Positions 311-44,898 of a stretch of DNA of 64,000 nucleotides are shown one piece after another. The stretch's first letter is position 1. Each line of letters starts with the position of its first letter. The stretch lies in NCBI GenBank assembly GCA_030390025.1, contig CM059431.1, positions 121,274,001 to 121,338,000 on the forward strand. Reading direction: 5' to 3'. Source of the stretch: Squalus acanthias (Eukaryota). A model generated the notes under the pieces. That model saw nothing but the letters and a program-made list of their open reading frames with translations, had not been told where the DNA came from and ran no database searches. A program made the position numbers and the translations under genes.

Positions 311-677
311 GTCCTCTACCCGCAGGGGGCCAGGAGTCCCTCCAGAGTGACTGCAGTGGGAGGAGATAGCTGAAGCGGTCAATGCCAGCAATCATGCCCC
401 CAGGAACTGGATCCAGTGCTGAAAGAAGTTTAATGACCTCACACAAGTAGTCAAGGTCAGTGAATACATCTTCAAATGTCATATCCCACCAACTGCACCA
501 CTAGCCTCACACACTGCTCAATGCACCACTCCCCCATCACTCACCTACTAACAATCTGTAGCAATCACGACTCATACCTCACAATCATAGCTTTACCTCA
601 CCCTCACACTCTTACCACTGCTGCAAGCCTCACACCCACATCTCACACCTTGCACACAATGCCAGCTATTCAACTAT

Positions 678-3600
678 GACAGGCACATCACCCAGACACA
701 TTGCACCACACGCACTGGCACACTTCACCCAAACACATTATATCACATTCACTGACACACTTTACCCAAACACATTGCACCACACTCACTGACACACATC
801 ACCCAAACACATTGCACCACACTCACTGACACACTTCACCCAAAAACATTGCACCACACTCACTGACACACTTCACCCAAACACATTGCACCACACTCAC
901 TGACACACTTCACCCAAACACATTGCACCACACTCACTGACACACTTCACCCAAACACATTGCAGCACACTCACTGACACACATCACCCAAACACATTGC
1001 ACCACACTCACTGACACACTTCACCCAAACACATTGCACCACACTCACTGACACACATCACCCAAACACATTGCACCACACTCACTGACACACATCACCC
1101 AAACACATTGCACCACACTCACTGACACACTTCACCCAAACACATTGCACCACACTCACTGACACACTTCACCCAAACACATTGCACCACACTCACTGAC
1201 ACACATCACCCAAACACATTGCACCACACTCACTGACACACTTCACCCAAACACATTGCACCACACTCACTGACACACATCACCCAAACACATTGCACCA
1301 CACTCACTGACACACTTCACCCAAACACATTGCTCCACACTCACTGACACACTTCACCCAAACACATTGCAGCACACTCACTGACACACTTCACCCAAAC
1401 ACATTGCACCACACTCACTGACACACTTCACCCAAACACACTGCTCCACACTCGCTGACACACTTCACCCAAACACATTGCACCACACTCACTGACACAC
1501 TTCACCCAAACATATTGCACCACACTCACTGACACGCTTCACCCAAAAACATTGCACCACACTCACTGACACACATCACCCAAACACATTGCACCACACT
1601 CACTGACACACTTCACCCAAAAACATTGCACCACACTCACTGACACACATCACCCAAACACATTGCTCCACACTCACTGATACACTTCACTCAAACACAT
1701 TGCACCACACTCACTGACACATTTCACCCAAAAACATTGCAGCACACTCACTGACACACATCACCCAAACACATTGCTCCACACTCACTGATACACATCA
1801 CCCAAACACATTGCACCACACTCACTGACACATTTCACCCAAAAACATTGCACCACACTCACTGACACACTTCACCCAAACACATTGCAGCACACTCACT
1901 GACACACATCACCCAAACACATTGCACCACACTCACTGACACAGATCACCCAAACACATTGCTCCACACTCACTGATACACATCACCCAAACACATTGCA
2001 CCACACTCACTGACACATTTCACCCAAACACATTGCACCACACTCACTGACACACATCACCCAAACACATTGCTCCACACTCACTGACACATTTCACCCA
2101 AAAGCATTGCTCCACACTCACTGACACATTTCACCCAAAAACATTGCATCACAGTCACTGACACACTTCACCCAAACACATTGCTCCACACTCACTGATA
2201 CACTTCACCCAAACACATTGCACCACACTCACTGACACACATCACCCAAACACATTGCACCACACTCACTGACACACTTCACCCAAACACACTGCTCCAC
2301 ACTCACTGACACACTTCACCCAAACACATTGCAGCACACTCACTGACACACATCACCCAAACACATTGCTCCACACTCACTGATACACTTCACCCAAACA
2401 CATTGCACCACACTCACTGACACACTTCACCCAAACACATTGCACCACACTCACTGACACACACATCACCCAAACACATTGCACCACACTCACTGACACA
2501 CTTCACCCAAACACATTGCACCACACTCACTAACACACACATCACCCAAACACATTGCTCCACACTCACTAACATACACATCACCCAAACACATTGATCC
2601 ACACTCACTAACACACACATCACCAAACACATTGCTCCAGACTCACTGACACACATCACCCACACACATTGCACCACACTCACTAACACACACATCACCC
2701 AAACACATTGCACCACACTCACTGACACATTTCACCCAAAAACATTGCAGCACACTCACTGACACACATCACCCAAACACATTGCTCCACACTCACTGAT
2801 ACACATCACCCAAACACATTGCACCACACTCACTGACACATTTCACCCAAAAACATTGCACCACACTCACTGACACACTTCACCCAAACACATTGCAGCA
2901 CACTCACTGACACACATCACCCAAACACATTGCACCACACTCACTGACACACATCACCCAAACACATTGCTCCACACTCACTGATACACATCACCCAAAA
3001 ACATTGCATCACAGTCACTGACACACTTCACCCAAACACATTGCACCACACTCACTGACACACATCACCCAAACACATTGCTCCACACTCACTGACACAT
3101 TTCACCCAAACACATTGCACCACACTCACTGACACACATCACCCAAACACATTGCTCCACACTCACTGACACATTTCACCCAAAAGCATTGCTCCACACT
3201 CACTGACACATTTCACCCAAAAACATTGCATCACAGTCACTGACACACTTCACCCAAACACATTGCTCCACACTCACTGATACACTTCACCCAAACACAT
3301 TGCACCACACTCACTGACACACACATCACCCAAACACATTGCAGCACACTCACTGACACACATCACCCAAACACATTGCTCCACACTCACTGATACACTT
3401 CACCCAAACACATTGCACCACACTCACTGACACACACATCACCCAAACACATTGCACCACACTCACTAACACACATCACCCAAACACATTGATCCACACT
3501 CACTAACACACACATCACCAAACACATTGCTCCAGACTCACTGACACACATCACCCACGCACATTGCACCAAACTCACTAACACACACATCACCCAAACA

Positions 3601-6600
3601 CATTGCACCACACTCACTAACACACACATCACCCACACACATTGCACCACACTCACTGACACACTTCACCCAAACACATTGCACCACACTCACTGACACA
3701 CATCACCCAAACACATTGCACCACACTCACTGACACACTTCACCCAAACACATTGCACCACACTCACTGACACACATCACCCAAACACATTGCACCACAC
3801 TCACTGACACACATCACCCAAACACATTGCACCACACTCACTGACACACTTCACCCAAACACATTGCACCACACTCACTGACACACTTCACCCAAACACA
3901 TTGCACCACACTCACTGACACATTTCACCCAAACACATTGCACTACACTCACTAACACACACATCACCCAAACACATTGCTCCACACTCACTGACACATT
4001 TCACCCAAACACATTGCACCACACTCACTGACACACATCACCCAAACACATTGCAGCACACTCACTGACACACATCACCCAAACACATTGCTCCACACTC
4101 ACTGATACACTTCACCCAAACACATTGCACCACACTCACTGACACACTTCACCCAAACACATTGCACCACACTCACTGACACACACATCACCCAAACACA
4201 TTGCACCACACTCACTGACACACTTCACCCAAACACATTGCACCACACTCACTAACACACACATCACCCAAACACATTGCTCCACACTCACTAACATACA
4301 CATCACCCAAACACATTGATCCACACTCACTAACACACACATCACCAAACACATTGCTCCAGACTCACTGACACACATCACCCACACACATTGCACCACA
4401 CTCACTAACACACACATCACCCAAACACATTGCACCACACTCACTGACACATTTCACCCAAAAACATTGCAGCACACTCACTGACACACATCACCCAAAC
4501 ACATTGCTCCACACTCACTGATACACATCACCCAAACACATTGCACCACACTCACTGACACATTTCACCCAAAAACATTGCACCACACTCACTGACACAC
4601 TTCACCCAAACACATTGCAGCACACTCACTGACACACATCACCCAAACACATTGCACCACACTCACTGACACACATCACCCAAACACATTGCTCCACACT
4701 CACTGATACACATCACCCAAAAACATTGCATCACAGTCACTGACACACTTCACCCAAACACATTGCACCACACTCACTGACACACATCACCCAAACACAT
4801 TGCTCCACACTCACTGACACATTTCACCCAAACACATTGCACCACACTCACTGACACACATCACCCAAACACATTGCTCCACACTCACTGACACATTTCA
4901 CCCAAAAGCATTGCTCCACACTCACTGACACATTTCACCCAAAAACATTGCATCACAGTCACTGACACACTTCACCCAAACACATTGCTCCACACTCACT
5001 GATACACTTCACCCAAACACATTGCACCACACTCACTGACACACACATCACCCAAACACATTGCAGCACACTCACTGACACACATCACCCAAACACATTG
5101 CTCCACACTCACTGATACACTTCACCCAAACACATTGCACCACACTCACTGACACACACATCACCCAAACACATTGCACCACACTCACTAACACACATCA
5201 CCCAAACACATTGATCCACACTCACTAACACACACATCACCAAACACATTGCTCCAGACTCACTGACACACATCACCCACGCACATTGCACCACACTCAC
5301 TAACACACACATCACCCAAACACATTGCACCACACTCACTAACACACACATCACCCACACACATTGCACCACACTCACTGACACACTTCACCCAAACACA
5401 TTGCACCACACTCACTGACACACATCACCCAAACACATTGCACCACACTCACTGACACACTTCACCCAAACACATTGCACCACACTCACTGACACACATC
5501 ACCCAAACACATTGCACCACACTCACTGACACACATCACCCAAACACATTGCACCACACTCACTGACACACTTCACCCAAACACATTGCACCACACTCAC
5601 TGACACACTTCACCCAAACACATTGCACCACACTCACTGACACATTTCACCCAAACACATTGCACTACACTCACTAACACACACATCACCCAAACACATT
5701 GCTCCACACTCACTGACACATTTCACCCAAACACATTGCACCACACTCACTGACACACATCACCCAAACACATTGCACCACACTCACTGACACATTTCAC
5801 CCAAAAGCATTGCTCCACACTCACTGACACATTTCACCCAAAAACATTGCATCACAGTCACTGACACACTTCACCCAAACACATTGCTCCACACTCACTG
5901 ATACACTTCACCCAAACACATTGCACCACACTCACTGACACACATCACCCAAACACATTGCACCACACTCACTGACACACTTCACCCAAACACACTGCTC
6001 CACACTCACTGACACACTTCACCCAAACACATTGCAGCACACTCACTGACACACATCACCCAAACACATTGCTCCACACTCACTGATACACTTCACCCAA
6101 ACACATTGCACCACACTCACTGACACACTTCACCCAAACACATTGCACCACACTCACTGACACACACATCACCCAAACACATTGCACCACACTCACTGAC
6201 ACACTTCACCCAAACACATTGCACCACACTCACTAACACACACATCACCCAAACACATTGCTCCACACTCACTGACACACACATCACCCAAACACACTGC
6301 ACCACACTCACTGACACACACATCACCCAAACACATTGCACCAAACTCACTAACACACACATCACCCAAACACACTGCACCACACTCACTAACATACACA
6401 TCACCCAAACACATTGATCCACACTCACTAACACACACATCACCAAACACATTGCTCCAGACTCACTGACACACATCACCCACGCACATTGCACCACACT
6501 CACTAACACACACATCACCCAAACACATTGCACCACACTCACTAACACACACATCACCCAAACACATTGCTCCACACTCACTGACACATTTCACCCAAAA

Positions 6601-9600
6601 GCATTGCTCCACACTCACTGACACATTTCACCCAAAAACATTACATCACAGTCACTGACACACTTCACCCAAACACATTGCTCCACACTCACTGATACAC
6701 TTCACCCAAACACATTGCACCACACTCACTGACACACACATCACCCAAACACATTGCAGCACACTCACTGACACACATCACCCAAACACATTGCTCCACA
6801 CTCACTGATACACTTCACCCAAACACATTGCACCACACTCACTGACACACTTCACCCAAACACATTGCACCACACTCACTGACACACACATCACCCAAAC
6901 ACATTGCACCACACTCACTGACACACTTCACCCAAACACATTGCACCACACTCACTAACACACATCACCCAAACACATTGATCCACACTCACTAACACAC
7001 ACATCACCAAACACATTGCTCCAGACTCACTGACACACATCACCCACGCACATTGCACCACACTCACTAACACACACATCACCCAAACACATTGCACCAC
7101 ACTCACTAACACACACATCACCCACACACATTGCACCACACTCACTGACACACTTCACCCAAACACATTGCACCACACTCACTGACACACATCACCCAAA
7201 CACATTGCACCACACTCACTGACACACTTCACCCAAACACATTGCACCACACTCACTGACACACATCACCCAAACACATTGCACCACACTCACTGACACA
7301 CATCACCCAAACACATTGCACCACACTCACTGACACACTTCACCCAAACACATTGCACCACACTCACTGACACACTTCACCCAAACACATTGCACCACAC
7401 TCACTGACACATTTCACCCAAACACATTGCACTACACTCACTAACACACACATCACCCAAACACATTGCTCCACACTCACTGACACATTTCACCCAAACA
7501 CATTGCACCACACTCACTGACACACATCACCCAAACACATTGCTCCACACTCACTGACACATTTCACCCAAAAGCATTGCTCCACACTCACTGACACATT
7601 TCACCCAAAAACATTGCATCACAGTCACTGACACACTTCACCCAAACACATTGCTCCACACTCACTGATACACTTCACCCAAACACATTGCACCACACTC
7701 ACTGACACACATCACCCAAACACATTGCACCACACTCACTGACACACTTCACCCAAACACACTGCTCCACACTCACTGACACACTTCACCCAAACACATT
7801 GCAGCACACTCACTGACACACATCACCCAAACACATTGCTCCACACTCACTGACACACTTCACCCAAACACATTGCACCACACTCACTGACACACACATC
7901 ACCCAAACACATTGCACCACACTCACTGACACACTTCACCCAAACACATTGCACCACACTCACTAACACACACATCACCCAAACACATTGCTCCACACTC
8001 ACTAACATACACATCACCCAAACACATTGATCCACACTCACTAACACACACATCACCAAACACATTGCTCCAGACTCACTGACACACATCACCCACGCAC
8101 ATTGCACCACACTCACTAACACACACATCACCCAAACACATTGCACCACACTCACTAACACACACATCACCCACACACATTGCACCACACTCACTGACAC
8201 ACATCACCCAAACACATTGCACCACACTCACTGACACACTTCACCCAAACACATTGCACCACACTCACTGACACACATCACCCAAACACATTGCACCACA
8301 CTCACTGACACACATCACCCAAACACATTCCACCACACTCACTGACACACTTCACCCAAACACATTGCACCACACTCACTGACACACTTCACCCAAACAC
8401 ATTGCACCACACTCACTGACACATTTCACCCAAACACATTGCACCACACTCACTAACACACACATCACCCAAACACATTGCTCCACACTCACTAACATAC
8501 ACATCACCCAAACATATTGATCCACACTCACTAACACACACATCACCCAAACACATTGCTCCACACTCACTGACACACATCATCCACACACATTGCACGA
8601 CACTCACTGACACACATCACCCAAACACATTGCACCACACTCACTGACACACTTCACCCAAACACACTGCTCCACACTCACTGACACACTTCACCCAAAC
8701 ACATTGCTCCACACTCACTGATACACTTCACCCAAACACATTGCACCACACTCACTGACACACTTCACCCAAACACATTGCACCACACTCACTGACACAC
8801 ACATCACCCAAACACATTGCACCACACTCACTGACACACTTCACCCAAACACATTGCACCACACTCACTAACACACACATCACCCAAACACATTGCTCCA
8901 CACTCACTGACACACACATCACCCAAACACACTGCACCACACTCACTGACACACACATCACCCAAACACATTGCACCAAACTCACTAACACACACATCAC
9001 CCAAACACACTGCACCACACTCACTAACATACACATCACCCAAACACATTGATCCACACTCACTAACACACACATCACCAAACACATTGCTCCAGACTCA
9101 CTGACAGACATCACCCACGCACATTGCACCACACTCACTAACACACACATCACCCAAACACATTGCACCACACTCACTAACACACACATCACCCAAACAC
9201 ATTGCTCCACACTCACTGACACATTTCACCCAAAAGCATTGCTCCACACTCACTGACACATTTCACCCAAAAACATTACATCACAGTCACTGACACACTT
9301 CACCCAAACACATTGCTCCACACTCACTGATACACTTCACCCAAACACATTGCACCACACTCACTGACACACACATCACCCAAACACATTGCAGCACACT
9401 CACTGACACACATCACCCAAACACATTGCTCCACACTCACTGATACACTTCACCCAAACACATTGCACCACACTCACTGACACACTTCACCCAAACACAT
9501 TGCACCACACTCACTGACACACACATCACCCAAACACATTGCACCACACTCACTGACACACTTCACCCAAACACATTGCACCACACTCACTAACACACAT

Positions 9601-12600
9601 CACCCAAACACATTGATCCACACTCACTAACACACACATCACCAAACACATTGCTCCAGACTCACTGACACACATCACCCACGCACATTGCACCACACTC
9701 AATAACACACACATCACCCAAACACATTGCACCACACTCACTAACACACACATCACCCACACACATTGCACCACACTCACTGACACACTTCACCCAAACA
9801 CATTGCACCACACTCACTGACACACATCACCCAAACACATTGCACCACACTCACTGACACACTTCACCCAAACACATTGCACCACACTCACTGACACACA
9901 TCACCCAAACACATTGCACCACACTCACTGACACACATCACCCAAACACATTGCAACACACTCACTGACACACTTCACCCAAACACATTGCACCACACTC
10001 ACTGACACACTTCACCCAAACACATTGCACCACACTCACTGACACATTTCACCCAAACACATTGCACTACACTCACTAACACACACATCACCCAAACACA
10101 TTGCTCCACACTCACTGACACATTTCACCCAAACACATTGCACCACACTCACTGACACACATCACCCAAACACATTGCTCCACACTCACTGACACATTTC
10201 ACCCAAAAGCATTGCTCCACACTCACTGACACATTTCACCCAAAAACATTGCATCACAGTCACTGACACACTTCACCCAAACACATTGCTCCACACTCAC
10301 TGATACACTTCACCCAAACACATTGCACCACACTCACTGACACACATCACCCAAACACATTGCACCACACTCACTGACACACTTCACCCAAACACACTGC
10401 TCCACACTCACTGACACACTTCACCCAAACACATTGCAGCACACTCACTGACACACATCACCCAAACACATTGCTCCACACTCACTGACACACTTCACCC
10501 AAACACATTGCACCACACTCACTGACACACACATCACCCAAACACATTGCACCACACTCACTGACACACTTCACCCAAACACATTGCACCACACTCACTA
10601 ACACACACATCACCCAAACACATTGCTCCACACTCACTAACATACACATCACCCAAACACATTGATCCACACTCACTAACACACACATCACCAAACACAT
10701 TGCTCCAGACTCACTGACACACATCACCCACGCACATTGCACCACACTCACTAACACACACATCACCCAAACACATTGCACCACACTCACTAACACACAC
10801 ATCACCCACACACATTGCACCACACTCACTGACACACATCACCCAAACACATTGCACCACACTCACTGACACACTTCACCCAAAACACATTGCACCACAC
10901 TCACTGACACACATCACCCAAACACATTGCACCACACTCACTGACACACATCACCCAAACACATTGCACCACACTCACTGACACACTTCACCCAAACACA
11001 TTGCACCACACTCACTGACACACTTCACCCAAACACATTGCACCACACTCACTGACACATTTCACCCAAACACATTGCACCACACTCACTAACACACACA
11101 TCACCCAAACACATTGCTCCACACTCACTAACATACACATCACCCAAACATATTGATCCACACTCACTAACACACACATCACCCAAACACATTGCTCCAC
11201 ACTCACTGACACACATCATCCACACACATTGCACGACACTCACTGACACACATCACCCAAACACATTGCACCACACTCACTGACACACTTCACCCAAACA
11301 CACTGCTCCACACTCACTGACACACTTCACCCAAACACATTGCTCCACACTCACTGATACACTTCACCCAAACACATTGCACCACACTCACTGACACACT
11401 TCACCCAAACACATTGCACCACACTCACTGACACACACATCACCCAAACACATTGCACCACACTCACTGACACACTTCACCCAAACACATTGCACCACAC
11501 TCACTAACACACACATCACCCAAACACATTGCTCCACACTCACTGACACACACATCACCCAAACACACTGCACCACACTCACTGACACACACATCACCCA
11601 AACACATTGCACCAAACTCACTAACACACACATCACCCAAACACACTGCACCACACTCACTAACATACACATCACCCAAACACATTGATCCACACTCACT
11701 AACACACACATCACCAAACACATTGCTCCAGACTCACTGACACACATCACCCACGCACATTGCACCACACTCACTAACACACACATCACCCAAACACATT
11801 GCACCACACTCACTAACACACACATCACCCAAACACATTGCTCCACACTCACTGACACATTTCACCCAAAAGCATTGCTCCACACTCACTGACACATTTC
11901 ACCCAAAAACATTACATCACAGTCACTGACACACTTCACCCAAACACATTGCTCCACACTCACTGATACACTTCACCCAAACACATTGCACCACACTCAC
12001 TGACACACACATCACCCAAACACATTGCAGCACACTCACTGACACACATCACCCAAACACATTGCTCCACACTCACTGATACACTTCACCCAAACACATT
12101 GCACCACACTCACTGACACACTTCACCCAAACACATTGCACCACACTCACTGACACACACATCACCCAAACACATTGCACCACACTCACTGACACACTTC
12201 ACCCAAACACATTGCACCACACTCACTAACACACATCACCCAAACACATTGATCCACACTCACTAACACACACATCACCAAACACATTGCTCCAGACTCA
12301 CTGACACACATCACCCACGCACATTGCACCACACTCACTAACACACACATCACCCAAACACATTGCACCACACTCACTAACACACACATCACCCACACAC
12401 ATTGCACCACACTCACTGACACACTTCACCCAAACACATTGCACCACACTCACTGACACACATCACCCAAACACATTGCACCACACTCACTGACACACTT
12501 CACCCAAACACATTGCACCACACTCACTGACACACATCACCCAAACACATTGCACCACACTCACTGACACACATCACCCAAACACATTGCACCACACTCA

Positions 12601-15600
12601 CTGACACACTTCACCCAAACACATTGCACCACACTCACTGACACACTTCACCCAAACACATTGCACCACACTCACTGACACATTTCACCCAAACACATTG
12701 CACTACACTCACTAACACACACATCACCCAAACACATTGCTCCACACTCACTGACACATTTCACCCAAACACATTGCACCACACTCACTGACACACATCA
12801 CCCAAACACATTGCTCCACACTCACTGACACATTTCACCCAAAAGCATTGCTCCACACTCACTGACACATTTCACCCAAAAACATTGCATCACAGTCACT
12901 GACACACTTCACCCAAACACATTGCTCCACACTCACTGATACACTTCACCCAAACACATTGCACCACACTCACTGACACACATCACCCAAACACATTGCA
13001 CCACACTCACTGACACACTTCACCCAAACACACTGCTCCACACTCACTGACACACTTCACCCAAACACATTGCAGCACACTCACTGACACACATCACCCA
13101 AACACATTGCTCCACACTCACTGACACACTTCACCCAAACACATTGCACCACACTCACTGACACACACATCACCCAAACACATTGCACCACACTCACTGA
13201 CACACTTCACCCAAACACATTGCACCACACTCACTAACACACACATCACCCAAACACATTGCTCCACACTCACTAACATACACATCACCCAAACACATTG
13301 ATCCACACTCACTAACACACACATCACCAAACACATTGCTCCAGACTCACTGACACACATCACCCACGCACATTGCACCACACTCACTAACACACACATC
13401 ACCCAAACACATTGCACCACACTCACTAACACACACATCACCCACACACATTGCACCACACTCACTGACACACATCACCCAAACACATTGCACCACACTC
13501 ACTGACACACTTCACCCAAACACATTGCACCACACTCACTGACACACATCACCCAAACACATTGCACCACACTCACTGACACACATCACCCAAACACATT
13601 GCACCACACTCACTGACACACTTCACCCAAACACATTGCACCACACTCACTGACACACTTCACCCAAACACATTGCACCACACTCACTGACACATTTCAC
13701 CCAAACACATTGCACCACACTCACTAACACACACATCACCCAAACACATTGCTCCACACTCACTAACATACACATCACCCAAACATATTGATCCACACTC
13801 ACTAACACACACATCACCCAAACACATTGCTCCACACTCACTGACACACATCATCCACACACATTGCACGACACTCACTGACACACATCACCCAAACACA
13901 TTGCACCACACTCACTGACACACTTCACCCAAACACACTGCTCCACACTCACTGACACACTTCACCCAAACACATTGCAGCACACTCACTGACACACATC
14001 ACCCAAACACATTGCTCCACACTCACTGATACACTTCACCCAAACACATTGCACCACACTCACTGACACACTTCACCCAAACACATTGCACCACACTCAC
14101 TGACACACACATCACCCAAACACATTACACCACACTCACTGACACACTTCACCCAAACACATTGCACCACACTCACTAACACACACATCACCCAAACACA
14201 TTGCTCCACACTCACTGACACACACATCACCCAAACACACTGCACCACACTCACTGACACACACATCACCCAAACACATTGCACCACACTCACTAACACA
14301 CACATCACCCAAACACACTGCACCACACTCACTAACATACACATCACCCAAACACATTGATCCACACTCACTAACACACACATCACCAAACACATTGCTC
14401 CAGACTCACTGACACACATCACCCACGCACATTGCACCACACTCACTAACACACACATCACCCAAACACATTGCACCACACTCACTAACACACACATCAC
14501 CCAAACACATTGCTCCACACTCACTGACACATTTCACCCAAAAGCATTGCTCCACACTCACTGACACATTTCACCCAAAAACATTGCATCACAGTCACTG
14601 ACACACTTCACCCAAACACATTGCTCCACACTCACTGATACACTTCACCCAAACACATTGCACCACACTCACTGACACACACTTCACCCAAACACATTGC
14701 AGCACACTCACTGACACACATCACCCAAACACATTGCTCCACACTCACTGATACACTTCACCCAAACACATTGCACCACACTCACTGACACACTTCACCC
14801 AAACACATTGCACCACACTCACTGACACACACATCACCCAAACACATTGCACCACACTCACTGACACACTTCACCCAAACACATTGCACCACACTCACTA
14901 ACACACATCACCCAAACACATTGATCCACACTCACTAACACACACATCACCAAACACATTGCTCCAGACTCACTGACACACATCACCCACGCACATTGCA
15001 CCACACTCACTAACACACACATCACCCAAACACATTGCACCACACTCACTAACACACACATCACCCACACACATTGCACCACACTCACTGACACACTTCA
15101 CCCAAACACATTGCACCACACTCACTGACACACATCACCCAAACACATTGCACCACACTCACTGACACACTTCACCCAAACACATTGCACCACACTCACT
15201 GACACACATCACCCAAACACATTGCACCACACTCACTGACACACATCACCCAAACACATTGCACCACACTCACTGACACACTTCACCCAAACACATTGCA
15301 CCACACTCACTGACACACTTCACCCAAACACATTGCACCACACTCACTGACACATTTCACCCAAACACATTGCACTACACTCACTAACACACACATCACC
15401 CAAACACATTGCACCACACTCACTGACACACTTCACCCAAACACATTGCACCACACTCACTGACACATTTCACCCAAACACATTGCACTACACTCACTGA
15501 CACACATCACCCAAACACATTGCACCACACTCACTGACACATTTCACCCAAACACATTGCACCACACTCACTGACACACATCACCCAAACACATTGCTCC

Positions 15601-18600
15601 ACACTCACTGACACATTTCACCCAAAAGCATTGCTCCACACTCACTGACACATTTCACCCAAAAACATTGCATCACAGTCACTGACACACTTCACCCAAA
15701 CACATTGCTCCACACTCACTGATACACTTCACCCAAACACATTGCACCACACTCACTGACACACATCACCCAAACACATTGCACCACACTCACTGACACA
15801 CTTCACCCAAACACACTGCTCCACACTCACTGACACACTTCACCCAAACACATTGCAGCACACTCACTGACACACATCACCCAAACACATTGCTCCACAC
15901 TCACTGACACACTTCACCCAAACACATTGCACCACACTCACTGACACACACATCACCCAAACACATTGCACCACACTCACTGACACACTTCACCCAAACA
16001 CATTGCACCACACTCACTAACACACACATCACCCAAACACATTGCTCCACACTCACTAACATACACATCACCAAACACATTGCTCCAGACTCACTGACAC
16101 ACATCACCCACGCACATTGCACCACACTCACTAACACACACATCACCCAAACACATTGCACCACACTCACTAACACACACATCACCCACACACATTGCAC
16201 CACACTCACTGACACACATCACCCAAACACATTGCACCACACTCACTGACACACTTCACCCAAACACATTGCACCACACTCACTGACACACATCACCCAA
16301 ACACATTGCACCACACTCACTGACACACATCACCCAAACACATTGCACCACACTCACTGACACACTTCACCCAAACACATTGCACCACACTCACTGACAC
16401 ACTTCACCCAAACACATTGCACCACACTCACTGACACATTTCACCCAAACACATTGCACCACACTCACTAACACACACATCACCCAAACAGATTGCTCCA
16501 CACTCACTAACATACACGGTGGCATAGTGGTTAGCACTGGTGCCTCACAGCGCCAGAGACCCGGGTTCGAATCTGACCTCGGGTGACTGTCTGTGTGGAG
16601 TTTGCACATTCTCCCCGTGTCTGTGTGGGTTTCCTCCGGGTGCTCCGGTTTCCTCCCACAGTCCAAAAATGTGTGGGTTAGGTTGATTTGGCTATGATAA
16701 ATTGACCCTTAGTGTTAGGGGGGATTAAATATGTGGGGTTATGGGGATAGGATGGGATATGTTAGGGGGGAATTAAATACGTGGGGTTACGGGGGTAGGA
16801 TGGGATATGTGTACTGTGGGGATTAAAGCAGGGACAGGGTACTGGATTTGGATGATCAGCCATGATCGTATTGAATGGCGGAGCAGGCTCGACGGGCCGA
16901 ATGGCCTACTCCTGCTCCTAGATTCTATGTTTCTATGTTTCTATGTTTTACACATCACCCAAACATATTGATCCACACTCACTAACACACACATCACCCA
17001 AACACATTGCTCCACACTCACTGACACACATCATCCACACACATTGCACGACACTCACTGACACACATCACCCAAACACATTGCACCACACTCACTGACA
17101 CACTTCACCCAAACACACTGCTCCACACTCACTGACACACTTCACCCAAACACATTGCTCCACACTCACTGACACACATCATCCACACACATTGCACGAC
17201 ACTCACTGACACACATCACCCAAACACATTGCACCACACTCACTGACACACTTCACCCAAACACACTGCTCCACACTCACTGACACACTTCACCCAAACA
17301 CATTGCAGCACACTCACTGACACACATCACCCAAACACATTGCTCCACACTCACTGATACACTTCACCCAAACACATTGCACCACACTCACTGACACACT
17401 TCACCCAAACACACTGCTCCACACTCACTGACACACTTCACCCAAACACATTGCAGCACACTCACTGACACACATCACCCAAACACATTGCTCCACACTC
17501 ACTGACACACTTCACCCAAACACATTGCACCACACTCACTGACACACACATCACCCAAACACATTGCACCACACTCACTGACACAATTCACCCAAACACA
17601 TTGCACCACACTCACTAACACACACATCACCCAAACACATTGCTCCACACTCACTAACATACACATCACCCAAACACATTGATCCACACTCACTAACACA
17701 CACATCACCAAACACATTGCTCCAGACTCACTGACACACATCACCCACGCACATTGCACCACACTCACTAACACACACATCACCCAAACACATTGCACCA
17801 CACTCACTAACACACACATCACCCACACACATTGCACCACACTCACTGACACACATCACCCAAACACATTGCACCACACTCACTGACACACTTCACCCAA
17901 ACACATTGCACCACACTCACTGACACACATCACCCAAACACATTGCACCACACTCACTGACACACATCACCCAAACACATTGCACCACACTCACTGACAC
18001 ACTTCACCCAAACACATTGCACCACACTCACTGACACACTTCACCCAAACACATTGCACCACACTCACTGACACATTTCACCCAAACACATTGCACCACA
18101 CTCACTAACACACACATCACCCAAACACATAGCTCCACACTCACTAACATACACATCACCCAAACATATTGCTCCACACTCACTGACACACATCATCCAC
18201 ACACATTGCACGACACTCACTGACACACATCACCCAAACACATTGCACCACACTCACTGACACACACATCACCCAAACACATTGCTCCACACTCACTGAC
18301 ACACATCATCCACACACATTGCACGACACTCACTGACACACATCACCCAAACACATTGCACCACACTCACTGACACACTTCACCCAAACACACTGCTCCA
18401 CACTCACTGACACACTTCACCCAAACACATTGCAGCACACTCACTGACACACTTCACCCAAACACATTGCACCACACTCACTAACATACACATCACCCAA
18501 ACACATTGATCCACACTCACTAACACACACATCACCAAACACATTGCTCCAGACTCACTGACACACATCACCCACGCACATTGCACCACACTCACTAACA

Positions 18601-21600
18601 CACACATCACCCAAACACATTGCACCACACTCACTAACACACACATCACCCAAACACATTGCTCCACACTCACTGACACATTTCACCCAAAAGCATTGCT
18701 CCACACTCACTGACACATTTCACCCAAAAACATTGCATCACAGTCACTGACACACTTCACCCAAACACATTGCTCCACACTCACTGATACACTTCACCCA
18801 AACACATTGCACCACACTCACTAACACACACATCACCCAAACACATTGCTCCACACTCACTGACACACACATCACCCAAACACACTGCACCACACTCACT
18901 GACACACACATCACCCAAACACATTGCACCACACTCACTAACACACACATCACCCAAACACATTGCAGCACACTCACTGACACACATCACCCAAACACAT
19001 TGCTCCACACTCACTGATACACTTCACCCAAACACATTGCACCACACTCACTGACACACTTCACCCAAACACATTGCACCACACTCACTGACACACACAT
19101 CACCCAAACACATTGCACCACACTCACTGACACACTTCACCCAAACACATTGCACCACACTCACTAACACACACATCACCCAAACACATTGCTCCACACT
19201 CACTGACACACACATCACCCAAACACACTGCACCACACTCACTGACACACACATCACCCAAACACATTGCACCACACTCACTAACACACACATCACCCAA
19301 ACACACTGCACCACACTCACTAACATACACATCACCCAAACACATTGATCCACACTCACTAACACACACATCACCAAACACATTGCTCCAGACTCACTGA
19401 CACACATCACCCACGCACATTGCACCACACTCACTAACACACACATCACCCAAACACATTGCACCACACTCACTAACACACACATCACCCAAACACATTG
19501 CTCCACACTCACTGACACATTTCACCCAAAAGCATTGCTCCACACTCACTGACACATTTCACCCAAAAACATTGCATCACAGTCACTGACACACTTCACC
19601 CAAACACATTGCTCCACACTCACTGATACACTTCACCCAAACACATTGCACCACACTCACTGACACACACATCACCCAAACACATTGCAGTACACTCACT
19701 GACACACATCACCCAAACACATTGCTCCACACTCACTGATACACTTCACCCAAACACATTGCACCACACTCACTGACACACTTCACCCAAACACATTGCA
19801 CCACACTCACTGACACACACATCACCCAAACACATTGCACCACACTCACTGACACACTTCACCCAAACACATTGCACCACACTCACTAACACACATCACC
19901 CAAACACATTGATCCACACTCACTAACACACACATCACCAAACACATTGCTCCAGACTCACTGACACACATCACCCACGCACATTGCACCACACTCACTA
20001 ACACACACATCACCCAAACACATTGCACCACACTCACTAACACACACATCACCCACACACATTGCACCACACTCACTGACACACTTCACCCAAACACATT
20101 GCACCACACTCACTGACACACATCACCCAAACACATTGCACCACACTCACTGACACACTTCACCCAAACACATTGCACCACACTCACTGACACACATCAC
20201 CCAAACACATTGCACCACACTCACTGACACACATCACCCAAACACATTGCACCACACTCACTGACACACTTCACCCAAACACATTGCACCACACTCACTG
20301 ACACACTTCACCCAAACACATTGCACCACACTCACTGACACATTTCACCCAAACACATTGCACTACACTCACTAACACACACATCACCCAAACACATTGC
20401 TCCACACTCACTGATACACTTCACCCAAACACATTGCACCACACTCACTGACACACATCACCCAAACACATTGCACCACACTCACTGACACACTTCACCC
20501 AAACACACTGCTCCACACTCACTGACACACTTCACCCAAACACATTGCAGCACACTCACTGACACACATCACCCAAACACATTGCTCCACACTCACTGAT
20601 ACACTTCACCCAAACACATTGCACCACACTCACTGACACACTTCACCCAAACACATTGCACCACACTCACTGACACACACATCACCCAAACACATTGCAC
20701 CACACTCACTGACACACTTCACCCAAACACATTGCACCACACTCACTAACACACACATCACCCAAACACATTGCTCCACACTCACTAACATACACATCAC
20801 CCAAACACATTGATCCACACTCACTAACACACACATCACCAAACACATTGCTCCAGACTCACTGACACACATCACCCACGCACATTGCACCACACTCACT
20901 AACACACACATCACCCAAACACATTGCACCACACTCACTGACACACTTCACCCAAACACACTGCTCCACACTCACTGACACATTTCACCCAAACACATTG
21001 CACCACACTCACTGACACACTTCACCCAAACACATTGCACCACACTCACTGACACACATCACCCAAACACATTGCACCACACTCACTGACACACTTCACC
21101 CAAACACATTGCACCACACTCACTGACACACATCACCCAAACACATTGCACCACACTCACTGACACACATCACCCAAACACATTGCACCACACTCACTGA
21201 CACACTTCACCCAAACACATTGCACCACACTCACTGACACACTTCACCCAAACACATTGCACCACACTCACTGACACATTTCACCCAAACACATTGCACC
21301 ACACTCACTAACACACACATCACCCAAACACATTGCTCCACACTCACTAACATACACATCACCCAAACACATTGATCCACACTCACTAACACACACATCA
21401 CCCAAACACATTGCTCCACACTCACTGACACACATCATCCACACACATTGCACGACACTCACTGACAGACACATCACCCAAACACATTGCACCACACTCA
21501 CTGACACACACATCACCCAAACACATTGCACCACACTCACTGACACACTTCACCCAAACACATTGCACCACACTCACTGACACACATCACCCAAACACAT

Positions 21601-21736
21601 TGCACCACACTCACTGACACACATCACCCAAACACATTGCACCACACTCACTGACACACATCACCCAAACACATTGCTCCACACTCACTGACACACTTCA
21701 CCCAAACACATTGCTCCACACTCACTGACACACTTC
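678..21736. repeat. About 21-kb minisatellite, 37-bp unit CACATTGCACCACACTCACTGACACAC(A/T)TCACCCAAA with 38/39-bp variants; roughly 550 units by length/unit estimate
   Basis: Directly visible tandem array with strong C/A strand bias. All Val/Cys-rich minus-strand ORFs here are translations of the repeat. Confidence 0.99.
16518..16948 (+). mobile_element. tRNA-derived V-SINE (HE1-like) inserted in the minisatellite
   Basis: A box GGTGGCATAGTGG, B box GGTTCGAATC, V-domain TGTGTGGAGTTTGCACATTCTCCCCGTG...GGTTTCCTCCCACAGTCCAAA, CR1-type tail GGGCCGAATGGCCTACTCCTGCTCC(TTCTATGT)n. Flanking TACAC direct repeats at 16513-16517 and 16949-16953. Confidence 0.93.
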
Positions 21737-23281
21737 TCTTTCTCTTGCAGGGCAAGGTGGCACATAACAGGTGCCAGCAGCAGCTAACCGGCGGGGTGAC
21801 AGGCACGGCTGCATATCCTGACCCAGCTGGAGGAGAGAGAGCTAAACATTGTTGGAGGGACCACCACTGAGGCCGTGGTGATCAGCGAGTCTGAAAACAT
21901 TGATGATGATTGTGTGCTCATACCTAATCTGCTTCTCACATCCCACTTCCCCCTCATCCCACAATCTCTCCTCACTTACAAGCTACTGATGGTGTAAGCA
22001 TGCACATCTTGTTTCCCCCCCACCTCTCCTCATCACAACCATACCCTTGTGCCTTTCTCCTTTCAGATACCCAAGAACTTCAAGCTTCAAGCCAGTGCAG
22101 GAAGAAGAGGAGAATGATGGAGAAGAAGAGACACAGTTACATGATCTGACACTCCCAGGCACCAGCTCAGAAACTGGCACTGCGCGTACTTTTGAGGGTA
22201 GTATAGAGGCAGATCTGCACGTGGTGAGTCACCGGGCATGAGTGGGCTGCAGCAAGGGCAGAGGGAAAGGGTAGCGTAGGTGCCAGCTCCCCGAAGGGCG
22301 AGGCCACACACGAGTTCTGCTGCAGAGAACTCAGATGAGGACTTTGATGGGGCGGCCTTCAGAAGAAGGGTGATGGGCATGCACACAGAAATGCTTGGTG
22401 CAGTGGCAGGCCTGCCAGAGAGCCTGTTGTCACTGTCAAGGAGCATGGAGGAGTCCAGCTCCAACCTTGCACAGTGCTTTGCAAAGAGCTTGGAGCCCAT
22501 GATTTCCAGGAAGGAAGTGATAGCAACTCCATTAGCACACTTGTGGACCCATCCATGATGCAACGTCTGATGGGCGATGTCGCGGCTTCCACTACAGCAC
22601 AAGCGAAAGCGACCCAAAGTCTGAGTGCTGCAGTGGAAGCTCAGACTGCTGTTATGAAAGCTCAGCTTGCTGCCATCGTGGCTGCATTTACCAGTGTGGA
22701 AAGGGGCTTGCAGAGTGTCACAGCTGTCCAGCAATCTGTCCTCCAACAGATGGCTAGGAATGCTGAGGCACCGCCCCGGGGGAGTTGCAGTGGGTCAGTG
22801 GAGCACGAACCTGCTGTCCTCTCTCAGGATGACAGCATTTGTACTTCCACCACTGCCACTCCACCAGTGCCCTTGCTGTTGCCTGTCAGCCAGCCAGCCC
22901 AGACTGCTGCCGCCAATGCCAAGGTGGTGCAGTCTACAGCCGGGCCTTCTAGGCCCAGAGCTGCTCAAGGTCATCCTGCAAGGCCATCTGCAGTCTCGCC
23001 CACTGAAACTCAGCAGCCTTCCACCAGCCATGCTGCAGCCACTGGGGTAGCACAACATAGGCGCACTAGGACAAGCAAAGGCACATGGAAGACAGGCACT
23101 AAGGGAATGCACAAGGGCGATTAGTTGACTTTGTTGTGGAGTTTTGCAATGAATCATTTAAAAATGATGTTTGTTTTGTGGTGGCTTTCATTTCAGCTTT
23201 GTGGCCAAGAGGATGCTGTGATGTTCCGTGACAGAGTAATGTTAAGGTGGGGAAGTTTTGAGCAACAGGGATCTGGAGTTT

Positions 23282-24621
23282 CATTGAGGGGAAGCGGAGT
23301 CTAATGTTGCGTTAATGGACAGCCCGTCTGGAACATGGATCTGCTGCCTACCTCCTCCTCTTCCTCCTCCTCTTCCTCCTCTTCCTCCTCCTCCTCCTAC
23401 TAAGCTGGTCACAGAACCCATGGTGGCAAGGGCTGCGCCTCATGATGGCAAAATTGTGGAGCATGTAGCAGACCAACATGAATTGGGACACCCACTCCGG
23501 CGATTACTGCAGGGCTCCTCCCGAGCGGTCAAGGCAGTGGAACTGTTGTTTCAGTACCTCGATGGTCTGCTCGATGACGTTCCTCGTGGTTGCATGACTC
23601 TCATTATATGACTGCTGGCCACGAGTGGTGGGGTCATGGAGGGGTGTCATTAGCCAGGTATAGAGCGGATAGTCCTTGTCACCTAACAGCTACCCTCAGG
23701 TTCAATGTGGTGGCTGGAAGATTGCTGGCACAGTGGACTGGCGCAGGATGAAGGCATCATGACTGCTGCCAGGATACTGGGCATTCACCGTCATGATGTG
23801 TTAGGCGTGATCACACCCAACTGCACAATAAGTGAGTGGTAACCTTTGCAGTTACTGAAGATCTCACCATTAAGATGCAGTGCCCACAAAGCCATGTTTT
23901 TTTTAATTTGTTTTTTTTATGGGGATGTGGGCGTCGCTGGTAAGGCCAGCATTTATTGCCCATCCCTAATTGCCCTTGAGAAGGTGTTGGTGAGCCGCCT
24001 GCTTGAACTGCTGCAGTCCGTGTGGCGAATGTACTCCCACAGTGCTGTTAGGTGGCGAGTTCCAGGATTTTAATCCAGCGACGTGTGTGCCGTCGATGGC
24101 GCCCTGCACCACGGGGAAGCCCGATATCCTGGCAAAGCCACGTGCATGCTTCTCCTGCTTCTCTCTAATTGAAGAGAAGGCAATGAAGTCCCCTCTCCTA
24201 AAGTATAGAGCCTCTGTGGCCTCCTGGATGCAGCGATGGATGGCGAACTGCAAAATGTTTGCTACGTCAGCTGTTCCAGCCTTGAAGGATCCTCTGGCAA
24301 AAAAATTCAGGTCCACGGTCCCCTTGAGGGGCACTGGCAGAGCTGTTGTCGCCCTGCTCTGAGGCTGCAGGTCTGGTTCCAAGAAGTGGCAGAGTTCTGT
24401 GACCACCTCCTGGTGAAGCGGAGCCACCGAACACACTGCTCCTGGCTTAGTTGCAGGTAGGAGAAGTGCTCCCTGAAGACCCTAGGTGGTTAAGGCCTCC
24501 TGCTAAGAGCCCTCCTCCTCCTCCTCCTCCTCCTCCCTCTGCGAGCAGCTTGTCTTTGCTGCCTTTGCTCCATCTCCCTGTCACGCTGCAGCGTGAAGGG
24601 TACTGCAACTAGAGCCTCCAA
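23282..24621 (-). pseudogene. Degenerate Harbinger DDE transposase, convergent with the dead Myb gene
   Basis: ORF 23966-24436 (EVVTELCHFLEPDLQPQSRA...GFARISGFPVVQGAIDGTHVA) aligns with the intact transposase. Frameshifts, stops and an insertion at about 23897-24078. Confidence 0.93.
23897..24078. mobile_element. Interspersed retroposon-like fragment interrupting the dead transposase; same family at about 61950-62240
   Basis: T-rich edge then GGGATGTGGGCGTCGCTGG...CATCCCTAATTGCCCTTGAGAAGGTG, repeated near 61950. Breaks the THVAL motif. Confidence 0.7.
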
Positions 24622-35757: not shown

Positions 35758-38700
35758 ACTCGAATTTCAAAGTCTGTGTTTTTAAAATAATCCTATGGAA
35801 ATTCATCTAAAATCAATGGGCTGGATTTTCCTTGGGAATGTGGGTTCAGAACATAGGAACATAGGAACAGGAGTAGGCCATTGAGCCCCTTAAGCCTGTT
35901 CCGCCATTCAATGAGATCATGGTTGATCTGCGACCTAACACCCGACTTTGGCCCATATCCCTTATTACCTTTAATTAACAGAAAGATATCAATCTCTGAT
36001 TTAGCATCAGTTTCTGTTTGCAGAAGAGAGTTCCAAACTTCTACCACCTTTTGTGTGTAGAAGTGTTTCCTAATTTCACTCCTGAAAGGCCTGGCTCTAA
36101 TTTTTAGACTGTACCCCCTAGTCCTAGACTCACCAACCAGCGGAAATAGTTTCTCTCTATCTACCCCATCTGTTCTCCTTAATATCTTGAAAACTTCGAT
36201 CAGATCACCCCTTAAACCTTCTAAATTCTAGGGAATACAACCCTAGTTTGTGTAATCTCTCCTCGAAACTTAACCCTTGAAGTCTGGGTATCATTCTGGT
36301 AAACCTACGCTGCACTCCCTCCAAGGCCAATATATCCTTCCTAAGGTGTGATGCCCAGAACTGCTCACAATACTCCAGGTGTGGTCTAACCAGGGTTTTG
36401 TACAGCTGCAGCATAACTTCTACCCCCTTGTACTCCAGTCTTCTAGATATAAAGGTCAGCATTCCATTAGCCTTTTTGATTATTTTCTGTACCTGCTCAT
36501 GACATTTTAATGATCTATGTACCTTGACCCCCAAGTCTCTTTGGACCTCCACTGTTTTTAGCTTTTCACCATTTAGAAAGTACACTGTTCTATCCTCTTT
36601 AGGTCCAAAGTGGATGACCTCACATTTGCCTACATTGAAATCCATTTGTCACAGTTTTACCCATTCACTTAATCTGTCGATATCCCTTTGTAATTTTATG
36701 CTTTCATCTACACTGCCTACAATGCCGCCTATCTTTGTGTCATCGGCAAATTGGGATATATGACCTTCTATGCCATCATCTAATACATTAATAAATACTG
36801 TGAATAATTGAGGCCCCAACACAGATCACTGCGGGATACCACTAGTCACATCCTGCCAGTTAGAGTACCTGCCCATTATCCCTACTGCCTGTCTCCTGCC
36901 GCTCAGCCAATTTCTTAACCAGGTCAATAATTTGCCCTCAGTACCGTGGGCTTTTACCTTAGTTCACAGGCTCTTATGTGCGACTTTATCCAATGCCTTC
37001 TGGAAGTCCATATAAATAACATCCATAGACATTCCCCTATCCACTACTTTAGTCACCTCCTCAAAAAATTCATCAGGTTTGTCAGGCATGACCTACCTTT
37101 CACAAATCCATGCTGGCTCTCTCTGATCAACTGAAAATTTTCGAGGTGTTCAGTCACCCTATCCTTAATTATAGACTCTCGCAATTTCCCCACAACAGAT
37201 GTTAGGCTAACCAGTGGAAATAGTTTCCCTCTATCTAGCCCATCTGTTCTCTCTCGCCATTCTTAAATAGCGGAGTGACATGCGCAATTTTCCAATCTAA
37301 AGGAACAATTCCTGAATTGAGAGAACTTTGGAAGATTATAGTTAGGGCATCTGCAATGTGCTTACCTACTTCCTTTAAATCCCTGGGATGGAAACCATCT
37401 GGTCCTGGGGATCTGTCACTCTTTAGTGCCATTATTTTCTTCATTACTGTTATTTTACTTATGTTGATTTTATTGAGTCCCTGTCCCTGAGTCAATATTA
37501 GTTTCCTTGTGATTTCCGGCATGCTATCCTCTTCCTCTACTGTAAATACTGATGCAAAGTAATTATTCAACATGTCCGCCATTTCCTTATTATCATTGAC
37601 AATATCAATGCTTTAAGTTTTTAAGGGGCCAACATTGCTCCTGACTACTCTCTTTTTCCTAATATAATTGTAAAAATTCTTTGTGTTGATTTTGATATCC
37701 CTTGCACGTTTCTTTTCAGACTCCCTTTTTGTAGCTCTTACTATCTGTTTTGTGACCCTTGGCTGTTCTTTGTATTTTTCCCATTCACCAGGATCTGTGC
37801 TATATTTTGCATTTTCGTATGCTTTTTCTTTTCGTTTTATGCTGTCCCTTACCTTTTTAGTCGTCCATGGCTGTTTTTTTTGGCAAGTAGAGCTCTTGCC
37901 CCCTCAGGGGTATAAACTTGCTCTGTATCACATTAAATTCTTTTTTGAACATCTCCCACTGATCTTCTGTCATTTTGCCCATTAACAGATTTACCCAGTT
38001 TACTGTGGACAGGCTCTGTCTCATCCCTTTGAAGTCGGCCTTACCCAAATCTAGAATCTTAGTAGCTGTTTTGTATTTCTCCCTTTCAAATGCTACGTTG
38101 AACTCAATCATGTTATGATCGCTATTAGATAAATGTTCACGCACAGTTAGGCTGTTAACTAAATCTGGTTCATTACTCATTACTAAATCTAATATAGCAT
38201 GCCCCCTTGTTGCCTCTAGGATATATTGGGCCAAAAATTCGGCACTTGCCGGGTGAGTACGTGTTGTGTACTCACCCGTAAGGCCTCCTGAAGTGCCGGT
38301 TTCCTGCATGCACTGCGCATGCGCGGGAAACCGGAACTTCCGGTCTCGTGAAGAGAGGGGTTGAGAGGTGAACCGCGTGCGCGGTAGAGGCTGCGCGCAT
38401 GCAGCGAACTTAGGGGTAAAAATTCAGTTGGTTGCGCCTCCCGTTAGCGCCTTAAGAGGGCGCTAATGGGGTGCAAAGCCGCTAGCGCCCGGGCGCAGCG
38501 ATGTTTGCGCCGCTCGGGAACTTAACTAGACATTGTGCGGCGGCGCTAAACTTTACCGCTGCGACCACCTGCGCGCGCAGATTGTGACGTCATTCCATGG
38601 TGCAACGCCCTTGTGGCGCCCCGGAGCGGAAATTGAGTGGCGCCCCCTGCCTTACCGCCTGGCGCATCCAACGACCGGAAGACTGGAACGCTATCAATCG

Positions 38701-38855
38701 CTGTGGGGCTGGGGGGGGGCGCTATTTAAAGGGGGCCTCTTCCTGTCTTTTTCTGTGGTTGACATTTTTGCACCACTCGTTCTGAGAGAGAGAGAGAGAT
38801 TCGGAGAGAAAGAAAGAGAGACTTCTGCATTGAGTCAACGCTTTGTGAAGTAGTT

Positions 38856-40085
38856 TTGCCTACTGATCCTAACTTCGCTGGTACTTTGGTTGCAGTCCTT
38901 CATAACTTTGCTTGCAAAGAGACTCTGGGGGCTGCACTGAATGGGGATATCATCCTGCTCCAGCTGAATCGGAGGACACAGAGACGCAGAGAGAGAGTGG
39001 CAATGATGGACAGACGGAGGAGGGCCAACAGGCGTATGTACAGGAGAGCTTACCCTCCCAGGGTATATCGTGAACAGCTCTCCTACATTCATTTGTCTGA
39101 GGAGCTGTGTTTGCGAAGGCTGCGATTCAGCAAGGAGGTGGTCACTGAGCTCTGCCACCTGCTGCAGCCAGATCTGCAGCCTCAACTGAGGTCCAGGACA
39201 TCTCTGTCGGTGGCAGTGAAGGTCACAGTGGCTCTCAACTTCTATGCTACTGGCTCATTTCAAGCTGCTGCTGGGGACCTCGCCAATATCTCCCAGTTCG
39301 CGGTGCATTGCTGCATCCGGCAGGTCACAAATGCCCTCTTTAAAAGGAGACGAGAGTTCATCTCTTTCCCCATGACCCTAGACAAGCAGCGTGACCGCGC
39401 TCTGGGCTTTGCGAGGATAGCGGGCTTCCCCATGGTGCAGGGCGCCATTGACTGCACGCATGTGGCTTTGCGTGCTCCACATGAGAATGCCGAGGAATTC
39501 CGGAACAGAAAGGGGTTCCATTCCTTGAATGTTCAGTTGGTCTGTGACCACAGACAGCTGATACTCGCTGTCAATGCCCACTATCCTGGCAGCTGCCACG
39601 ATGCTTTCATCCTGCGCCAGACTACTGTGGCAGAACTTTTTGAGGCACCGCATCAGCCAGTTGGTTGGCTTCTCGGGGACAAGGGGTATCCATTGAGCAC
39701 CTGGCTGATGACACTGCTCCGTACGCCCAACACCCCTGCTGAGCTGCGGTACAATGTGAGCCATCAAGCTACCAGGAACATCATTGAGCGCACAATCGGC
39801 GTGCTGAAGCAACGGTTCCGCTGTCTCGACCATTCTGGAGGAGCCCTGCAGTACTCGCCTGAGCGAGTATCCAACTTCGTAGTTGTGTGCTGCATGTTGC
39901 ATAACATGGCAATCGTCAGGACCCAGCCAATGCCACCAGGCGTTGGAGCACCACCAGAGGAGGAGGAGGAAGAGGAGGAAGAGGACGAGGAGGATGATCA
40001 TCAGCAGCACCAAGGAGGGAGGGCGGCCCACAATGGTGAAACTGCAAGGGCCGTCCGTCAACGGCTGATAGCAAGCCGCTTCTAG
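38856..40085 (+). CDS. Harbinger (HARBI1-family) DDE transposase; open from 38856, first in-frame ATG at 39003 gives 360 aa
   Basis: Catalytic motifs GAIDCTHV, LLGDKGYP, RNIIERTIGVLKQRFRCL; also NRKGFHSLNVQLVCD, YPGSCHDAFIL, CCMLHN and an acidic tail. No stops. AATAAA at about 40265. Confidence 0.95.
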   Translation: MPTDPNFAGTLVAVLHNFACKETLGAALNGDIILLQLNRRTQRRRERVAMMDRRRRANRRMYRRAYPPRVYREQLSYIHLSEELCLRRLRFSKEVVTELCHLLQPDLQPQLRSRTSLSVAVKVTVALNFYATGSFQAAAGDLANISQFAVHCCIRQVTNALFKRRREFISFPMTLDKQRDRALGFARIAGFPMVQGAIDCTHVALRAPHENAEEFRNRKGFHSLNVQLVCDHRQLILAVNAHYPGSCHDAFILRQTTVAELFEAPHQPVGWLLGDKGYPLSTWLMTLLRTPNTPAELRYNVSHQATRNIIERTIGVLKQRFRCLDHSGGALQYSPERVSNFVVVCCMLHNMAIVRTQPMPPGVGAPPEEEEEEEEEDEEDDHQQHQGGRAAHNGETARAVRQRLIASRF

Positions 40086-40397
40086 GGCCCCTGCTGTGGA
40101 AATGGCTTCTGCCATTGCTAACAACATCAATGAACCCAGCACGCAACCCCTAAGCCGGCCAAGGCACCAATGATTCCAAACACCAAACATGTATATTTTT
40201 AATACAAAAACTTATTTATTTTACAAACTCTGTGTGTTTCATTTCCTCATGACAAACTCATAGAAATAAACACAAAAAAACAGTCATTAACATAACTGGT
40301 TCTCACAACCTGGAGATAATGTCCAAAACACTAGACAAAAGTTGGACCACGAACCTCGGCCTTTAATAAAAAAATGACCAGCATTTTGTCACACATC

Positions 40398-44860: not shown

Positions 44861-44898
44861 TCACAAGCTTTCGGAACTATCGCTCCTTCCTCAGGTGA
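44861..44898 (-). ncRNA. Putative minimal type I hammerhead ribozyme, inverted twin
   Basis: Exact reverse complement of 45060-45097. Confidence 0.65.

Follow-up and report, generated by a model that had tools for sequence, protein, structure and literature searches.

The window, which is the whole 64,000-nt stretch of DNA that was analyzed, contains 2 Harbinger elements, designated elements A and B, each of which carries a tandem repeat in the predicted first intron of a Myb/SANT gene (Table 1). Element B is a PIF/Harbinger: a transposase, a Myb/SANT gene, inverted ends, and a 3-bp target duplication, which is the rule for PIF/Harbinger, are all present. The inverted arms of element B (38408–38424 and 42617–42633) are 17 nt long and 88% identical, and its copies elsewhere in the genome are 98–99% identical. 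Comparison of 4 public runs with element B revealed the spliced joint for B intron 2 in contigs of 2 runs, both guessed to be RNA; these contigs, which cannot demonstrate absence, gave no joint for intron 1. Close relatives of the region 41450–42300 of element B are found in public runs from at least 8 other organisms.

Element A, on the plus strand, is a decayed Harbinger, the left end of which is probably upstream of the window start. Its transposase and Myb genes are homologous to those of element B, with nucleotide identities of 69–75% in pieces. The 2 elements represent 2 subfamilies of one Harbinger lineage, and the stretches that match between them both fall within the predicted Myb intron 1. 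This intron is 285 nt long in typical copies of A (18 of the 30 best genomic matches). The tandem array of element A is interrupted by a SINE-like insert, and a second case of such an insert inside a 37-mer array was observed at another locus (L004); these inserts may resemble the shark HE1 family.

Table 1. Positions of the elements, genes, and repeats (window coordinates except in the first row)
Feature	Position	Strand	Remarks
Window	C7 121274001-121338000		In the 3.7-Gb genome
Intron 1 of element A Myb/SANT gene (predicted)	456..21750	+	GT..AG read from sequence; inflated by the array
26-nt motif, single copy	665..690	+	-76..-51 from the 3' splice site in the collapsed intron
37-bp tandem array, also 38/39-bp variants	684..21733	+	About 550-560 units (37 bp x 561)
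tRNA-type SINE-like insert within the 37-mer array	16518..16949	+	A/B-box-like start, 8-bp tandem tail
Exon 2, intron 2, and exon 3 of element A Myb gene	21751..23120	+	Decayed, with an approximate end; piecewise identity to B of 71-75%
Decayed transposase of element A	23356..24502	-	69-70% nucleotide identity to the B transposase; convergent with the Myb gene
Intact young Harbinger element B	38413..42628	.	Terminal inverted repeats; TTA flanks on both sides
DDE transposase open frame of B	38763..40085	+	Pfam DDE_Tnp_4, E 1.3e-38
Intron 1 of B Myb gene (predicted)	41697..42033	-	337 nt; collapsing the repeat to one unit leaves 230 nt
Three 54-bp units, whole motif in each	41727..41893	-	x 3.1; the ends carry a 6-bp direct repeat at a spacing of 54 bp
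Exon 1 of B Myb/SANT gene	42034..42270	-	Pfam Myb_DNA-bind_5, E 1.7e-9

A shared motif in a homologous intron

An earlier note on this DNA reported that the sequence leading into the array of element A matches the core of the 54-bp repeat of element B at 23 of 26 positions. We reproduced this match: residues 665–690 (plus strand) differ by 3 mismatches from each of 41772–41747, 41826–41801, and 41880–41855 (minus strand). The likeness extends upstream, as the note also stated, with 631–690 and 41913–41855 sharing 78% identity over 60 nt in a self-BLAST comparison (E 4.5e-5). That the match might be due to chance or to an assembly artefact is an explanation of negligible probability: the intron is C/A-rich, and a block of 60 identical units in the array could be a mis-assembly that affects array length, but 0 of 100 shuffles gave any match to the motif, the likeness is collinear to the splice site, and it recurs at hundreds of loci. 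For the match itself, this explanation is already refuted.

Relative to the 3' splice site, the motif spans −76 to −51, the 37-mer −57 to −21, and the 54-mer −90 to −37. The motif is wholly inside the 54-mer of B, and only its last 7 bases are included in the 37-mer unit of A, where the motif occurs once, next to the array. The 2 units cover distinct windows with 21 nt in common, and therefore the inference of 2 separate duplication events stands. The 37-mer unit has no AG or GT dinucleotide and presumably includes the likely branch point, by the yUnAy consensus.

The rest of the introns, which by eye did not align obviously, does align: over their last 110 nt, the A intron and the collapsed B intron run collinearly with no gap, and intermediates allow the intron to be aligned in full, although a direct A–B alignment confined to the 5' part scores no higher than shuffles. 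Genome-wide, 12,899 exact matches to a degenerate exon-1 pattern were obtained, and the introns behind this pattern, fetched by position, gave a ladder of subfamilies A, C, D, E, F, G, and B (the consensus of D is based on 1 locus, that of E on 2, and that of F on 3). The 7 consensus introns align end to end with one 58-nt indel. Aligned through the 5 intermediate subfamilies, the introns of A and B are identical in 127 of 225 columns (56%), identity being 43% over the 5' part, 63% in the segment immediately before the motif, and 22 of 26 positions in the motif itself. The motif is the best-kept window of the intron, but only by a marginal lead after correction, with permutation p values of 0.023 for A–B identity and 0.07 for changes among the 7 subfamilies, all windows allowed for; in the seven-subfamily comparison, it has 0.38 changes per site versus 0.91.

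The earlier note had regarded equal conservation of the whole intron as a sign of simple relatedness. The intron is indeed homologous throughout and relatedness largely explains the match, but a weak excess of conservation in the motif remains. The alignments show that the match mostly reflects shared ancestry within an intron that is homologous along its whole length. The consensus fold of the motif region was within the range of column shuffles (13–17% of which were as low), and no conserved fold of the motif was seen. An Rfam search of 4 loci returned no relevant match and a single chance-level match outside the intron.

A distant second Harbinger clade (L141–L159) has 4,873 exact exon-pattern matches and an intron 1 of 283–344 nt. 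An ungapped profile of the motif, compared with shuffles, had no consistent match in 13 introns of this clade; 2 of the 13 reached p 0.04, at different places. No tandem duplication was found in these 13 introns. In all subfamilies and in the distant clade, intron 1 has a strong strand bias, the sense strand having only 8–17% G and 31–41% C.

Intron 1 also differs from the exons in its rate of change. Between Harbinger lineages, the Myb introns resemble one another much more than exons 1 and 2 do, even when only transversions are counted. Transversion differences per ladder step range from 0.047 to 0.167 in intron 1 versus 0.116 to 0.395 at third codon positions of exon 2; that is to say, the intron changes 2–5 times slower than these positions, and no faster than the first and second positions. 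Within subfamily A, intron 2, which was not involved in choosing the loci, likewise shows greater similarity between copies than exons 1 and 2 do. Exon 3 of the Myb gene has a rate intermediate between those of the introns and exons 1 and 2, and therefore fast DNA-binding exons are as likely as slow introns. The pattern, which extends across the whole lineage, may reflect constraint on the introns, exchange limited to the introns, or rapidly changing DNA-binding exons. A stronger reading, which we consider unlikely, is that intron 1 would be a constrained or laterally exchanged non-coding module and the motif a putative protein-bound or nicked site, the repair of which yields deletions and register-specific duplications. 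If this were true, the transposon would be a sequence-programmed minisatellite generator with thousands of natural replicates in one genome.

Duplications in the last 90 nt of the intron

As the idea of a repeat hotspot within the elements had anticipated, repeats are not uniform along them: when Tandem Repeats Finder (TRF) was applied to A and B loci spanning the Myb half of the elements, every recurrent duplication fell within the final 90 nt of the intron. Among 29 A loci, a query-biased sample, the 37-mer is the only recurrent minisatellite that varies between loci (7 of 29), and among 30 B loci, the 54-mer alone recurs. Apart from these, the 29 A and 30 B loci contain triplet runs and, in exon 3, a degenerate 21-mer that is inherited. 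In one E locus, a 10-mer is repeated close to the branch point.

The suggestion that these Harbingers spread minisatellite seeds held on a scale far beyond the window, with 23,077 exact 37-mer junctions (214 of them within the window) and 14,632 54-mer junctions genome-wide. In B, the 54-mer is an inherited variable repeat of 2–6 units: among 40 B-type loci picked by the exon pattern, 2 had one unit, 24 had two, 11 had three, 1 had four, and 2 had five or more, so that 38 of 40 had at least two. Among the 39 true B copies, only 1 has fallen back to one unit. Subfamily G has its own 54-mer arrays in 3 of 6 loci, with G-specific bases in every unit, which suggests either 2 origins in one register or a single origin followed by losses. 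The 6-bp direct repeat at −90 and −36 is present in G (6 of 6 bases) and in B and is imperfect in E and F, and 0 of 5 E and F loci have the 54-mer.

The 37-mer ranges from 2 to about 560 units across array loci, and in most copies of A the unit is present once. Patterns for the first unit, with up to 2 mismatches, matched 160 array starts versus 1,274 single copies, and the first-unit matches are on at least 19 large contigs among the 100 matches listed. Arrays make up 11% of A copies by these pattern counts, 3 of 19 in a sample chosen through exon 2, and 0 of 12 in a sample chosen through exon 1; because the samples disagree, we infer 5–15% as a fair range for array-bearing copies. (From the sampled loci, L160, L158, L145, and L142, which lack a full intron, and L069, which has an insertion, were left out, as were L149, L153, and L175, and L143 was assigned to subfamily C.) A second 37-mer array of more than 20 kb is located at 38.57 Mb of C1 (G000:C1:38565996-38587652). 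The 37-mer, a repeat for which a source can now be named, occupies at least 0.85 Mb of the genome (23,077 × 37 bp), and perhaps 1.4–2.2 Mb if exact junctions are 39–60% of all. On a small scaffold (G000:C2406), 5 exact array starts are spaced 70–110 kb apart, probably as a segmental repeat.

The units of the window array show expansion in place, apparently by unit slippage and large unequal exchanges, because they include recurrent locus-private variants and identical multi-unit blocks; the array also holds the SINE-like insert. The largest blocks noted, of 60 units (6059 vs 11330) and 33 units (2319 vs 4041), reflect either recent large unequal exchange or mis-assembly.

Origin of the 37-mer arrays and the role of the motif

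We consider it probable that the repeats arose by common ancestry of the introns, 2 duplications, transposition of the seeds, and expansion in place in A, and that the motif was not the trigger. In this account, the 54-mer duplication arose in the G/B branch and the 37-mer duplication in the A branch, both within the last 90 nt of the intron, and short direct repeats would have initiated each of them through slippage or unequal exchange. Active elements could carry either repeat because the 3' splice site is outside both units, and the 37-mer would be tolerated because, in addition, its unit is free of AG and GT. Transposition would then have scattered the seed; the young B family keeps 2–6 units as an inherited variable repeat, and in old A copies the 37-mer kept expanding in place to arrays of more than 20 kb. 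At the ends of the 37-bp register, just 5 of 6 bases are alike, several unused registers score better, and microhomology alone does not explain the choice of register.

The earlier note had proposed the motif as a conserved cis-element that is also prone to duplication. Most tests speak against the motif as the amplified unit or as the cause of amplification. The motif is not the unit of A. Subfamily C carries the motif, and its 37-bp unit differs from that of A by 3 bases; one exact pattern for 37-mer junctions of C had 0 matches, compared with 1,130 exact intron ends. In A, a 51-bp register that would copy the motif has a direct repeat with 10 of 11 bases alike, better than that of the 37-mer, and the search for its junctions returned 1 match, which is ordinary non-junction sequence. 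In a discovery batch, the 5' half of the motif was intact in 17 of 19 array loci versus 7 of 20 single copies, but in a replicate with the criterion fixed beforehand, and slightly tilted against the association, the motif was intact in 8 of 20 array loci versus 7 of 20 singles (p 0.5). When the ancestral T at −66 was allowed post hoc, the replicate counts were 13 of 20 versus 8 of 20 (p 0.10). From these comparisons, the 26-nt motif does not appear to be either the unit or the trigger of 37-mer amplification.

A related explanation, that the motif is a bound or nicked site causing local breaks, the repair of which duplicates adjacent or overlapping DNA, is in our judgment quite improbable. It would fit the status of the motif as the best-conserved window, the confinement of the recurrent duplications to the last 90 nt, the association in the discovery batch, and a cluster of small indels at −89 to −56 that holds 8 of the 19 events found in 46 single A introns (a post hoc result, with p about 0.003). 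Against it are the failed replicate, the absence of junctions from C, the unused 51-bp register, and the distant clade, in which the motif was not detected; moreover, the indel cluster was not cleanly repeated in later loci. The indel cluster leaves the idea of the motif as a trigger alive at low odds. Small deletions with differing ends over the motif region were seen in L065, L071, L072, L075, L090, L129, and L134.

Within subfamily A, 2 histories of the arrays were weighed. The first, to which we give an even chance, is a single early 37-mer duplication that was carried by master copies or passed between lineages by intron-limited exchange, with most A copies having reverted to one unit or never having had an array; this history requires no hotspot. 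It is favored by the use of one weak register only and by the composition of the units: array units are near the family consensus, with about 0.5 mismatches per 30 nt versus a mean of 2.4 for single units (28 loci), and 0 of 10 arrays had a private change fixed in all units. Such consensus-like units seem contrary to the expectation of a simple late duplication. In addition, the B family demonstrates that masters can carry arrays, 2 array loci separated by 1.1 Mb on C8 form a supported sister pair, and across 29 loci, intron variants are nearly unlinked (mean r2 0.06–0.08), in contrast to exon variants, for which linkage persists along the gene (0.19–0.36). However, r2 does not fall overall with distance, reversion to one unit was rare among the true B copies, and contraction chimeras, a search for which has low power, numbered 0 at 80 array starts, with 2 doubtful ends.

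The second history, somewhat short of even probability, is that each array starts anew once its copy has inserted, growing out of the single unit of that copy, with a preference for intact seeds and permissive chromosome regions. On a tree of 91 A loci, 28 with arrays, the arrays are scattered, requiring 23 changes versus 24.2 for shuffled labels, with at least 7 changes forced by supported branches; this tree, from which 9 loci without an anchor were left out, is built on the intron, the variants of which may be shuffled. Along the chromosomes, 33 of 53 neighbors of arrays are also arrays versus 38% expected (p 0.0008), but local hopping or segmental duplication could produce such clustering. 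Arrays are also enriched in the outer tenth of chromosomes (11 of 49 array loci versus 5 of 80 single loci, p 0.011), in a comparison of groups that are unmatched for mismatches and from which loci on small scaffolds (13 with arrays, 5 single) are excluded. The second units of two-unit arrays are almost free of mutations in old loci, which favors this history, but the fresh-origin history is at odds with the better registers that stay unused and with the lack of fixed private changes in the arrays.

Relation to known transposon-derived repeats

Minisatellites and satellites that derive from transposons and arise at hotspots within the element are a well-described class (PMC3389668, PMC9659126, PMC6947457, PMC4079207). 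They include the Alu- and LTR12-derived minisatellites of mammals (PMC3389668) and the mouse minisatellites derived from B1 and MaLR (PMC9659126, PMC6947457), and the model of Haber and Louis places initiation between short flanking direct repeats (PMC3389668, PMC6947457). From these accounts, the repeats described here resemble the mammalian cases in that (i) a short internal piece of an element became the tandem unit at many loci; (ii) regions of the element act as hotspots; (iii) some repeats spread by transposition and others began after insertion; and (iv) in the mammalian cases short direct repeats (5–10 bp) flank the progenitor unit, and here the corresponding bases agree at 6 of 6 positions for the 54-mer in G but at 5 of 6 for the 37-mer, which is weaker than in unused registers. 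They differ from the mammalian cases in that an intron of an autonomous DNA transposon with two genes supplies the unit, the likely branch point falls inside it, almost exclusively one register is used, and the arrays exceed 20 kb.

Tetris of Drosophila virilis is likewise a DNA transposon whose internal repeats (TIR-220) gave rise to satellite-like arrays of kilobase size, favored by the genomic setting; it is described as a non-autonomous foldback element with 220-bp repeats in its inverted ends (PMC4079207). By contrast, the units here are 37 and 54 bp long and lie in a predicted spliceosomal intron, where in most copies the unit occurs once. The Helitron minisatellites of C. elegans are also transposon-borne and dispersed in the genome, but they belong to another element class, and an insulation function is claimed for them (bioRxiv 10.64898/2026.08.08.743475). 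The autonomous PIF/Harbinger elements of fish share the pairing of a DDE transposase and a Myb-like gene; in the text of that study, the words tandem and satellite are absent and no Harbingers were found in elephant shark (PMC9179366). The word Harbinger is absent from a review of transposon-derived repeats (PMC9659126).

A search of literature titles and the beginnings of abstracts returned no Harbinger-intron-derived tandem repeat. Judged by this search, the Harbinger intron is a new source of tandem repeats, and the class of transposon-derived minisatellites and satellites to which they belong is known. An amplification-prone cis-element would matter more, but the claim of such an element is not supported. 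The thousands of seed copies, ranging from a single unit to more than 20 kb, together with the sister family C, which differs by three bases in the unit and shows no such junctions, form an unusually clean natural experiment that bears on how minisatellites and satellites begin.

The window also contains 3 copies of another repeat (26722–27989, 45144–46207, and 57837–59031), which are 83–87% identical. By eye, these copies include Myb-like coding remnants on the opposite strand and probably belong to a further Harbinger family. Finally, a 343-bp near-perfect palindromic insert (99%) is located at 44808–45150, and locus L095 has similar ends.
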